From contig JACPBY010000005.1 of NCBI GenBank assembly GCA_016180065.1, forward strand, positions 5,541 through 69,540: 64,000 nucleotides of DNA. Direction: 5' to 3'. Of the stretch, positions 59,601 through 64,000 are shown piece after piece (positions within the stretch are counted from its first letter, which is position 1; each line of letters opens with the position of its first letter). This stretch comes from Candidatus Woesearchaeota archaeon (GTDB lineage: Archaea; Nanobdellota; Nanobdellia; Woesearchaeales; UBA10216). Both the position numbers and the translations under genes were made by a program. The notes below the pieces were generated by a model that saw nothing but the letters and a program-made list of their open reading frames with translations, made no database searches and had not been told where the DNA came from.

Positions 59601-61617
59601 TGGTAATTTGTTATGGACGGAGAAAAACGGAGTAAGAACAACTTATGAGTACGACACATTCAGCCGCATAGTCAAGGAAGTCCAGCCTTATGACACCACA
59701 GGCTACCCTACAAAGGAATACACTTACAGCTTTGACGGCACACCACCAGAAACCATCAAAACAAGCCAAAAAACAACCGCAAACAAAACACAAGACACCT
59801 TCTACTACTACGACGGCTTCGGACAACTCATCCAAATTAAAACGCCGGCAGAAGACAACCAACAGGTTGCCAAAAACTTCTTCTACGACGGACAAGGAAG
59901 AATCAAAGCCGAACAGAATCCGTATTTTAATACTTTTTCTCCTTCACTGTCACAACCGTCAGCAACAGCCACATATACCAACTATACATATGATGCTTTA
60001 TCAAGAGTTACCAACGCCACGTTTCCAGACAACACAAACATCACAATCGTATTCGACCACTGGACAGTTTCAACATACGACCAGAACAACCACCGCAAAG
60101 ACTACTACTTGGACGCGTACGACAGAATAACCAAGATTACCGAACACAATATAGACCCGCTCCTGAACGATGGCATCGTTTACACCCACAACACCAGCTA
60201 CAGCTACGACGAAGCAAACCAACTGCTGCAAATCAACGACACACACAACAACCAATTCAAATTCACATACGATTCTTTAGGCCGCCGCACTAGATTGAAC
60301 GACCCAGACACAGGAGAATGGAATTATAGCTACGACTTAGCCGGCAATTTAATTAGCCAAAGAGGCGGCGGAGGGAATCTTGTAACCGGTGACGGATTCT
60401 ACAGAGAATACAATAATTTGAATCAGTTAATTAGAATCCGAAACGGCAGCAACAGCAGCGGCACATTAGTAGAAGAATACACGTACGACCCATACGGAGA
60501 ACGCATAAAAATATCGAGAAACGACACAGCTGAGACCGTTGTTTACACACCTTTCAGAGAACTAATGCAAATACACAACAGCAGCGGCATTTTCAATTAC
60601 AGCTACATATACGACGGCACAACACTCGTAGCCCGAGTTAACCCCGACGGCACCAAACAATACTACCACCCAGACCACCTCGGAAGCACAACGCTAATCA
60701 CAGACAGCAGTGGCAACGTCGTTGAGGAAACGTTCTACGAACCATACGGACAAGTAACCTCAGGAGGCAGCAACGAAGTCAAACTCTATACCGGACAATT
60801 CTCAGACGAAGCAACCAACCAATATTACTATGGTGCGAGATACTACCTACAGACTTTAGGGAAATTTGGACAGGCGGATCCGTTATTTATTGACTTAGCA
60901 AATTATAAAAAACAACAGATGAACTTACTATTCAATCCACAAAGGCTAAACCAGTATTCCTACGCACTAAACAATCCTTATCGTTATACAGATCCAAAAG
61001 GTTTATGGACTCTTCAAATTGGAATGAGCCTGACAGCTGGATTCGGAGGCGGAGGCACAATCGGCGGAGGACTGATTATTGGTTACAGCAAAGCAGGAGG
61101 TCTACAAATAGGACACTACGGAACTTATGGAGGCGGTGCACATGCAGGAGGATCAGCAGCGTTAACATTTGATTTTAGCACTTCTCCAAATGATTATATC
61201 AAAGACATATCGGGAGATACTTTAACTATGGGGGGATCTGCAGACGTAGGACTTAGTGTTCCAGGTTATACTGCAATAGGAGTAGATGTAGGTTTGGAAG
61301 AAAATATGCCAATAAACGAAGAGAAAGATGATAGAACTGATAAAAAGGCAGACAACAAAAAGAAGCTAAGTTCATCACGAACATTTAGCATAGGAGTTGG
61401 AACAGGCACTATAGCAGAAGGTCACGGATATTACGCCCATACAGCAATTGGACAGTGGGCTGGTGGAAGAAGAAGCGATACTGGAAAAACTAATGCCAAT
61501 GGTGGCAAGAGTGAAGGAGGATGGAGTAACGTTATTCCCGACCCATCAGGGAGAAAAGATAGGCGTGGAAATCCGATTTACCTTGTTCCTCAAAGTCGAG
61601 GAAAGATCACGAAGTAA
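56662..61617 (+). CDS. Secreted RHS/YD-repeat toxin (SpvB-like N-terminus, FG-GAP repeats, TcdB-mid, RHS core, variable C-terminus)
   Basis: Signal peptide; PPGTNGLQPSL.VSYNS; six DxNxDGxxD repeats; REFRGF; YD repeats; HPDHLGS; YYGARYY; YALNNPYRYTDPKGL. Confidence 0.93.
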   Translation: MLKKRNARLFLFTVLAAFSLLSALNASAADETYKPYLHKAEVPEHPKIKLYGAYSTELFPGAATYAYQIETPPGTNGLQPSLTVSYNSQNAKQRPGILGAGWTLTATYIYRDVNSTPDNTSDDLFKLVLNGAVHDLAYNQPDDFYHTKIETYARVQSLTTTTNTHGTYWLVTEKDGTKHRLGYNTDSEMTSSTGKGYAVKWSVDREEDTYGNTISYTYNENPFSGDHGTAYPDSINYNNEQARKIEFAYEQSPRPDLRAVYEQGNLLNETRRLASINISVNGKTVRKYGFAYKSLNPENTLTALAKITLFGADGISELHNAQFDYYNTTHGFANSTSLQIPEIFASYQTGDEGDRLADVNNDGFTDIIKSNQATGEKTVWINNKTSGWNNESSKWNFPLFIVDTERDDNGIRLADLNMDGLVDIIQSINDGGSTIKSAYLNNGTGWVSASAWNSPLIFITGGAGAGNANDEGVRFAELNGDGLIDMIQSKKLDANPPTKNVYLNNGSGWNKTGNWEPPAVFINLSYRDGGLRVLDLNADGLDDLMEAHNTSGTVTLNAWLNTGTGWTDASSIWKPPIVFTNAQIPDTGVRFADANGDGLQDMWQDSAINKTIWLNTGNGWLESPAWESPEQFIYNGKNIGRRLADANGDGLADILVSYQNQSETTKKAWIKNSTTHYLLKTIKTELGANITLSYQNSTHYNNTNASGISQLGFNVFVVSSMLQNNSLNDSHNTLANYTYSYSGGSYDYNDREFRGFSTTTETLPDMTAVKHYFHQDDILKGKEFKTETYDKSNNIFAAAENTYNYTQTSNSYNTFPTSSATYIHDGQTANPKITNTTYTYDQYGNVATITQLGDTSVAGDEKLERYDYVYNTTAWILDRQSWYRLYAGNTTTLRDIKYIYDNSYYGVSPSRGSVTSVQSWLDTGQNHQTSAVYGSKGELIEEIDALGRTTKYQYDTTKTFPEQTINPLGHPTRFSYDLSTGNLLWTEKNGVRTTYEYDTFSRIVKEVQPYDTTGYPTKEYTYSFDGTPPETIKTSQKTTANKTQDTFYYYDGFGQLIQIKTPAEDNQQVAKNFFYDGQGRIKAEQNPYFNTFSPSLSQPSATATYTNYTYDALSRVTNATFPDNTNITIVFDHWTVSTYDQNNHRKDYYLDAYDRITKITEHNIDPLLNDGIVYTHNTSYSYDEANQLLQINDTHNNQFKFTYDSLGRRTRLNDPDTGEWNYSYDLAGNLISQRGGGGNLVTGDGFYREYNNLNQLIRIRNGSNSSGTLVEEYTYDPYGERIKISRNDTAETVVYTPFRELMQIHNSSGIFNYSYIYDGTTLVARVNPDGTKQYYHPDHLGSTTLITDSSGNVVEETFYEPYGQVTSGGSNEVKLYTGQFSDEATNQYYYGARYYLQTLGKFGQADPLFIDLANYKKQQMNLLFNPQRLNQYSYALNNPYRYTDPKGLWTLQIGMSLTAGFGGGGTIGGGLIIGYSKAGGLQIGHYGTYGGGAHAGGSAALTFDFSTSPNDYIKDISGDTLTMGGSADVGLSVPGYTAIGVDVGLEENMPINEEKDDRTDKKADNKKKLSSSRTFSIGVGTGTIAEGHGYYAHTAIGQWAGGRRSDTGKTNANGGKSEGGWSNVIPDPSGRKDRRGNPIYLVPQSRGKITK

Positions 61618-64000: not shown

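Follow-up and report, generated by a model that had tools for sequence, protein, structure and literature searches.

The window analysed here is a stretch of 64,000 nucleotides (G000:C14:5541-69540) from a small groundwater archaeon (Candidatus Woesearchaeota), whose metagenome-type assembly comprises 1.06 Mb in 23 contigs and is 88% complete. Three genes of interest lie on the same strand in its last part (Table 1): P0001, which encodes a toxin of the RHS type, P0003, a small open reading frame (ORF), and P0004, which encodes a protein with a signal-peptide-like leader that is referred to below as the partner. A segment of the YD-repeat shell that intact relatives carry within the toxin chain is absent from P0001, where a five-residue glycine linker stands at its position, and is encoded in P0004.

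The product of P0001 begins with a signal-peptide-like N-terminus, followed by SpvB (PF03534, 48 bits), an FG-GAP propeller (FG-GAP_3, PF13517, 56.2 bits) and TcdB_midN (TcdB_toxin_midN, PF12256, 67.7 bits), all of which score above their cut-offs, and then by YD repeats, the Gly linker, the last YD repeats, the RHS core and a C-terminal toxin domain. The repeats are recognized by the NCBIfam model TIGR01643 (65.5 bits) and by RHS_repeat (PF05593), which gives 67.7 bits in P0001 and 44.7 bits in P0004 with a cut-off of 22. Rhs_assc_core (TIGR03696) scores 53.8 bits, with a cut-off of 32.5, over residues 1359–1448, and the core ends with DPKGL at residues 1444–1448. Across the junction P0001 reads ...DPDTGEWNYSYDLAGNLISQ-RGGGG-NLVTGDGFYREYN..., with ...GNLISQ before RGGGG and NLVTGDG... 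after it. An earlier note on this DNA had placed a Gly junction at 60361–60375, and the translation gives RGGGG there, as residues 1234–1238. The chain up to GNLISQ is called M1, and the last YD hairpins together with the core are called M3.

P0004, the next-but-one gene after the toxin, starts with ATG at 62046 (GTG at 62037 is also possible) and stops at the window-equivalent position 64322, 322 nucleotides past the window end, after 758 residues. Its YD run, which we call the belt, extends from residue 56 (nucleotide 62211) to PVHAP (residues 283–287, nucleotides 62892–62906). In the AlphaFold model, with a predicted local distance difference test score (pLDDT) of 74.8, the leader (residues 1–63) is disordered, about 20 β-strands cover residues 64–278, and all-β domains follow. 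These domains form an arm that matches Ig/FN3/MG domain arrays in Foldseek and stays below the profile cut-offs for PKD (19.5 bits, cut-off 23.5) and Big_15 (16.3 bits, cut-off 27). The frame and the model therefore agree with the earlier note, which had described the gene as a signal peptide, the missing YD run from 62211 to PVHAP and then Ig/PKD-like domains. That note had also considered that the second gene might carry an RHS core of its own beyond the window; this is ruled out, since the frame stops after 758 residues, and no RHS core was found in the whole protein, either by reading it or by the NCBIfam profile search.

Table 1. Features of the toxin–partner locus (positions in the window)
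Feature	Coordinates	Strand	Residues	Remarks
Toxin gene P0001	56662..61617	+	1651 residues	open frame from translation
Module M1, cage N-part, ends ...GNLISQ	56662..60360	+	1–1233	left flank kept in all classes of relatives
Gly linker RGGGG	60361..60375	+	1234–1238	site of the YD belt in fused relatives
Module M3, last ~5 YD hairpins and RHS-associated core (1359–1448)	60376..61005	+	1239–1448	TIGR03696; RhsP core alignment; separate gene in sister loci
C-terminal toxin domain	61006..61614	+	1449–1651 (203 residues)	Gly-rich
Small ORF P0003, putative immunity protein	61659..62018	+	119 residues	two hydrophobic stretches
P0004 start and signal-peptide-like leader	62046..62210	+	1–55	
P0004 YD belt	62211..62915	+	56–290	~20 β-strands; the segment absent from the toxin
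P0004 outer arm	62916..64000 (gene on to 64322)	+	291–758	Ig/PKD-like β-sandwich domains

Tiling, conservation and linkage of toxin and partner

Of the 119 homologs that best match the shell region, 40 share the Gly-rich junction, in which ...GNL(I/V)xQ is followed by a Gly-rich stretch of 5–8 residues and NL(V/I)TGDG..., and the remaining homologs have 313–420 or ~630–950 extra residues at the same point. All 14 fused relatives that were compared by flank alignment and BLAST carry 313 to ~950 residues between the two flanks, as expected from the claim that a YD run normally lies at this junction. Their order is M1, partner residues ~57–290 (up to 412) and M3, with BLAST E-values of 3e-18 to 3e-41 for the partner match, which begins between 15 residues before and 10 residues after the end of the left flank. 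In P0042, for example, the left flank ends at 1242, the partner aligns over 1244–1596 and the right flank starts from ~1602. In two database fragments of fused proteins the junction is unbroken and in register, residue by residue, with the mature start of the partner. Hence the two proteins of the window tile against intact homologs in the way the earlier note had foreseen. Contigs of all four public runs span the junction itself, nucleotides 60361–60375, without a single difference or alternative joint; all four come from one study, and this DNA may itself derive from them.

The partner is well preserved as a gene of its own. A protein search gave 10 further stand-alone partners of 718–744 residues with 33–63% identity, each with a hydrophobic leader, and the frames of stand-alone partners, of 718–764 residues, are intact, with conservation reaching down to 33% identity. 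All 13 partner loci that were read, the window included, and all 11 stand-alone partner proteins have a start codon and a hydrophobic, signal-peptide-like leader. The mean pairwise identity is highest in the YD belt (0.54), lower in the arm (0.41–0.42) and 0.23 in the leader, in which hydrophobicity is retained at low identity. P0004 has its own start and export signal, and its frame is neither truncated nor decaying, which sets it apart from an Rhs orphan. All partners change in character past P(V/I)HAP. Most go on with an Ig/PKD-like array, while the arm of L130 has two Laminin_G_3 lectin-type domains (E 8e-37), that of L127 has another fold with a Ser/Thr-rich tail, and the partner of L062 is short (396 residues). 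Judged from these sequences, such variety fits a constant belt with exchangeable outer arms, and the swappable targeting subunit suggested by the earlier note would fit it as well.

On the toxin side, 75 loci from species-representative genomes were collected, of which 16 short-junction toxin loci were assessable; L049, L057, L072, L075 and L083 had too little downstream sequence. A partner lies downstream on the same strand in 12 of the 16 (L032, L033, L038, L039, L040, L044, L052, L055, L062, L065, L066 and L092; 11 distinct, since L044 and L052 are the same sequence and the L044 contig ends inside the partner), in addition to the present window. On the partner side, 30 metagenome loci contained 15 distinct stand-alone partners, and 13 of these were assessable, L113 and L128 being too short; a short toxin was found upstream of 12 of the 13. 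The survey proposed by the earlier note thus links junction and partner in both directions. Searching the present genome by tblastn with four module queries and the whole toxin, with its 88% completeness in mind, gave one toxin and one YD partner only. The sole other match, outside the window at G000:C14:82273-83064 on the minus strand, is weak, partner-arm-like and without a YD run; its longest arm-like part (82273–82830) lies inside a 749-residue open frame and has 24–30% identity to the Ig-like arm of the partner. In L039 the complete partner gene is preceded by an ORF of 243 residues (L039:17043-17774) that starts like a partner, with a similar leader and the initial YD strands, and then runs into a Gly-rich segment.

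A second split point in sister loci

The clade uses a second split point that the earlier note had missed, with M3 as a separate gene. Nine of the 119 homologs fuse M1 to the whole partner (belt and Ig arm) and end there, and the same fusion was found in 11 genomes among 401 sampled from the order, a tally in which 51 genomes have a match and G183, with a YD run in a 2185-residue frame, is counted in another class. In 16 genome loci the fused M1–belt gene is followed directly by a separate gene for M3 and toxin. A hydrophobic, signal-peptide-like leader precedes the first M3 hairpin in 20 of 20 boundaries read, and in 16 of these the M3 start overlaps the upstream stop as NTGA (12 ATGA, 3 GTGA and 1 TTGA), so that the genes are translationally coupled. 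Such M3 boundaries occur in L036, L037, L042, L048, L051, L054, L058, L060, L061, L069, L073, L078, L079 and L106. These sister loci appear to represent an undescribed TcB/TcC-like two-gene system with Sec leaders. As M3, with about five hairpins, plug and toxin, is too small for a cage of its own, assembly of the cage from separately exported chains is likely the norm in the clade, as with TcB/TcC but with Sec leaders.

An M1 tree was built with FastTree from 108 rows, after 12 of 120 rows with fewer than 480 aligned M1 residues had been dropped. Short and belt-fused forms are mixed in one 43-row clade with 100% support, and the short form requires at least seven changes on the tree. This intermingling suggests that the GNLISQ junction is a recombination hot spot at which the arrangements interconvert, in line with the relic M3 pieces and orphan M3 cassettes seen in many loci. 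A simple homologous recombination between YDxxGNL motifs was rejected as the origin of the linker, as the linker and ISQ are still present between the motifs.

Several side observations concern the same cassettes. Tandem arrays of two to four M3 cassettes (core and toxin) lie downstream of the main gene in L042, L082, L137, L130, L061 and L079. The three cassettes in a row in L082 are on a contig labelled as a bacterial (Buchananbacteria) metagenome-assembled genome, which may be a binning error or a transfer. Relic M3 pieces (...YDPFGQRIK...TPFKELM...) are found in short ORFs just 5′ of the partner start (L032:15279-15626, L038:15468-15782, L065:15531-15755, L092:1203-1610 and L033:15287-15832) and look like leftovers of earlier cassette exchanges. 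In the deepest public run, X1, the assembly breaks at window positions 60579–60619, where a contig of depth 2 diverges at 60619. This point is near toxin residues 1307–1320, just past the ...TPF(K/R)ELM... motif at which relic M3 fragments elsewhere end, and the break suggests strain variation at a cassette recombination point.

Predicted assembly of the cage and its alternatives

Residues 620–1460 of P0001 were folded alone. The model has a pLDDT of 78.4, with the core plug below 50, and its best fold matches in the PDB are TcdB2-TccC3 (TMq 0.58) and YenB (TMq 0.49). The prediction of the two-chain complex, which the earlier note had suggested, combined P0001 residues 702–1460 with P0004 residues 55–295. 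The interface score ipSAE was 0.87, 0.88 and 0.88, with 0.05 for the best of three controls; in the calibration, 58 of 80 solved complexes and 2 of 110 mismatched ones reach the mark it passes, counts that hold only roughly here because alignments made for this analysis were used. The runs share at least 95% of their contacts. The pLDDT is 89 for the partner, and 86 for the toxin chain, compared with 74 when it is paired with unrelated partners. The predicted contacts on P0001 comprise loops spaced ~22–25 residues apart along 946–1219, the linker region 1225–1244, residues 1250–1361 and the core at 1399–1441. This pattern would be expected of a belt that forms a single turn of the spiral, with the last M1 turn on one side and M3 with the plug on the other; the short Gly linker would then span the seam where neighbouring turns meet. 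The model speaks for complementarity of the two chains rather than for binding as such, which is a prediction.

We propose, as the probable if by no means certain reading of this locus, that toxin and partner form a Sec-exported two-chain RHS cage of the Tc type, in which the belt completes the wall in trans around the plug and brings a binding arm, with the C-terminal domain as payload and P0003 as the immunity protein. Chain 1 (56662–61617) would consist of the signal peptide, SpvB, the propeller and most of the YD spiral (M1), and then, after the five-residue Gly linker, of the few remaining YD hairpins, the RHS core plug and the 203-residue toxin on the M3 side. Chain 2 (62046 onward) would be exported separately by Sec, and its 20-strand YD sheet is predicted to slot in as about one full turn between the last M1 turn and the M3/plug region, closing the wall around the plug, while its Ig/PKD-like domains would point away from the cage and serve as an arm for binding. 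The likely immunity protein would be the product of P0003, which is small and hydrophobic. In this arrangement export, assembly outside the cell, the function of the arm, the activity of the toxin and immunity are presumed roles. A search for RNA data sets containing 59800–63200 listed none. The proposal of the earlier note that an RHS cage is completed in trans is supported by the tiling, the linkage and the predicted complex.

It is also possible, if on the whole unlikely, that the short toxin is self-sufficient, forming a smaller closed cage in which the Gly stretch is an ordinary loop, and that the downstream gene encodes an independent secreted or surface protein such as an adhesin. The partner would then descend from the 3′ end of a belt-fused gene, displaced when cassettes recombined, and the two genes would be neighbours for historical reasons, without a functional link. 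Displacement of 3′ cassettes is known from RHS loci, relic and orphan M3 pieces litter the related loci, and the forms have switched at least seven times on the M1 tree; the arrangement has often been reshuffled, and some copies may be transient recombination products. Further points weigh against completion in trans. Four of the 16 assessable short-toxin loci (L034, L046, L059 and L080) have no partner within 10 kb. When the whole assemblies of the genomes behind these loci and behind L083 (G404) were searched, no partner was found in G401, G402 had only a 306-residue arm fragment, G404 had only a 254-residue N-terminal ORF covering residues 35–144 (similar to the 243-residue ORF of L039), and G403 had one partner gene for at least three short toxins. 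In all, two or three short-toxin genomes are without a complete partner, in assemblies of unstated completeness. The stand-alone partner of L112 is without a complete toxin in 5.4 kb upstream. The model of the toxin alone is moderately confident over the linker (pLDDT blocks 72 and 66), so that a shorter cage might close by itself. Moreover, since the two chains are halves of one chain in relatives, the high complex score may mirror likeness to solved single-chain and TcB-TcC shells rather than affinity. A displaced orphan, however, is expected to lack a start and a leader and to decay, yet all 13 loci keep both the start and the hydrophobic leader. The best-conserved region of the partner is the YD sheet, for which a free adhesin would have no use and whose edges would lie exposed, and the Gly-rich linker is kept in 40 of 40 short forms. 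Linkage is strong in both directions, and the complex prediction passes and raises the confidence of the toxin chain, all of which argues for a cage completed in trans.

A very unlikely variant is that the belt protein acts mainly as a shared adaptor for separately encoded M3–toxin subunits and does not complete the linked M1–M3 toxin. It would suit the single partner for at least three short toxins in G403 (loci L034, L038 and L057, two of the short-junction copies being in tandem in L034), as well as L039, L040, L052 and L122, where a coupled M3 gene, itself with a signal peptide, comes after the stand-alone partner. In the present 88%-complete genome, on the other hand, the search gave no further M3, M1 or YD gene, the ORF that follows the partner is not M3-like, and belt plus M3 would, in the absence of M1, fall well short of a closed cage. 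That the junction is merely an assembly error, or the pair a broken pseudogene, is scarcely conceivable; nothing was found in its favour, the four bridging runs and the same junction in 40 homologs from other assemblies rule it out, and both frames are open, each with its own leader.

If completion in trans is accepted, the belt might further act as a detachable wall segment, at once receptor arm and release gate. The arm would engage the target, the belt would shift, the Gly linker would hinge, and the cage would open and free the toxin; we regard this extension as speculative and doubtful. Such a cage, which the belt would close once outside the cell, would do without the TcA or type VI secretion system (T6SS) machinery of other RHS cages; a single belt could serve several toxins, and the target could depend on the arm that the belt carries.

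Comparison with known RHS cages and features around the pair

RHS/Tc cocoons are a major class of toxin containers, and how they open without an injection machine is poorly understood. The Tc cage consists of two polypeptides whose sheets continue into one another. Its BC cocoon (TcB-TcC; PDB 4o9x, 6sup for TcdB2-TccC3 and 4igl for YenB-YenC2) shares with the present locus SpvB, the FG-GAP propeller, TcdB_midN, the YD spiral and the RHS core plug, and it gave the best structural match of P0001 residues 620–1460, as noted above. In Tc, however, the chain breaks between the N-half of the spiral (TcB) and the C-half with plug and toxin (TcC), whereas here both ends of the spiral are on one chain and the separate chain is an internal turn with an outer Ig/PKD arm; both chains, moreover, have Sec-type leaders. 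TcA families (PF18276 and PF03538) had no match in the 88%-complete genome, and none in 14 control genomes either, so that this search has no positive control. Unlike the window locus, the sister loci of the same clade have a TcB/TcC-like break. These belt-fused DPANN loci have the same three modules and boundaries, a leader on every chain and the same Ig/PKD arm, and differ in that the break comes after the arm rather than before the belt and in the coupling of M3 by the NTGA overlap described above.

The T6SS Rhs effectors RhsA (7q97), RhsP (8h8a), Tse5 (8cp6) and Tse15 (8uy4) also have a YD cage and an RHS core, and match P0001 with E-values of 1.5e-15 to 1e-4. Their pieces stay together non-covalently after self-cleavage. 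They differ from the present pair in that these pieces are cut from one chain by autoproteolysis rather than encoded by separate genes, in their delivery by T6SS, and in being without SpvB, propeller or Sec leader; DPANN archaea are not known to have a T6SS. Orphan or displaced C-terminal cassettes of Rhs loci are alike in the extra 3′ fragments downstream, in recombination at conserved repeats and in the relic M3 of related loci, but the partner begins at a start codon, carries a leader and keeps its frame intact, and is an internal wall segment rather than a toxin tip. The teneurin YD shell likewise combines a YD barrel with β-sandwich or propeller domains for binding and appears in the fold list of the toxin model (TMq 0.19–0.31); in contrast to the present system, it is a single chain, eukaryotic and without toxin release.

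TcdB/TcaC-type polymorphic toxin components are already known, as are two-chain cocoons (TcB-TcC). PMC3482391 lists for Euryarchaeota a class with signal peptide, SpvB, propeller and RHS, and describes recombination of polymorphic toxins. A literature search at title and abstract level found no description of split RHS cages in DPANN archaea in either arrangement; mentions of 'TcdB' in DPANN papers are probably the transporter database TCDB. As to the distinct design suggested by the earlier note, a two-chain RHS cage as such is known from TcB/TcC, and what is new is which piece is separate. The topology, with the internal turn encoded separately and both spiral ends on one chain, appears to be new, and so do Sec leaders on every chain in a DPANN clade. 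The clade would build its cocoon from separately exported chains cut at two different points. If this is true, two halves that are joined covalently can take up an extra turn between them to complete a β-spiral cage, which would be a natural example of modular cage assembly and would offer a testable idea for how small, host-dependent archaea target and release caged toxins. The roughly 25 split loci form a comparative set that makes the question testable.

As for the presumed payload, the C-terminal 203 residues of P0001 match no Pfam family at E<=1 apart from noise, and contain many Gly runs and hydrophobic residues. P0003 has no Pfam or NCBIfam family above cut-off, and none at E<=1 apart from noise. 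The ORFs at its position vary among other loci, and many are small and hydrophobic; the layout of P0003 resembles that of the same-position ORF in L055 and of one ORF in L039. The two products may be a membrane-acting toxin and its immunity protein, the membrane role being suggested by their composition.

The gene after the partner, outside the window (L001:3810-4961, window-equivalent 64346 onward), encodes more than 384 residues with a signal-peptide-like start, has no Pfam match and is not M3-like. Directly 5′ of the toxin, an ORF of 302 residues (55660–56568) gave no family match. Further upstream, an ORF with a Bro-N domain lies at 52945–53592, and the region 50800–55579 is of a surface-polysaccharide type, with a Polysacc_synt flippase-like gene, an NAD-dependent epimerase/dehydratase and a methyltransferase.

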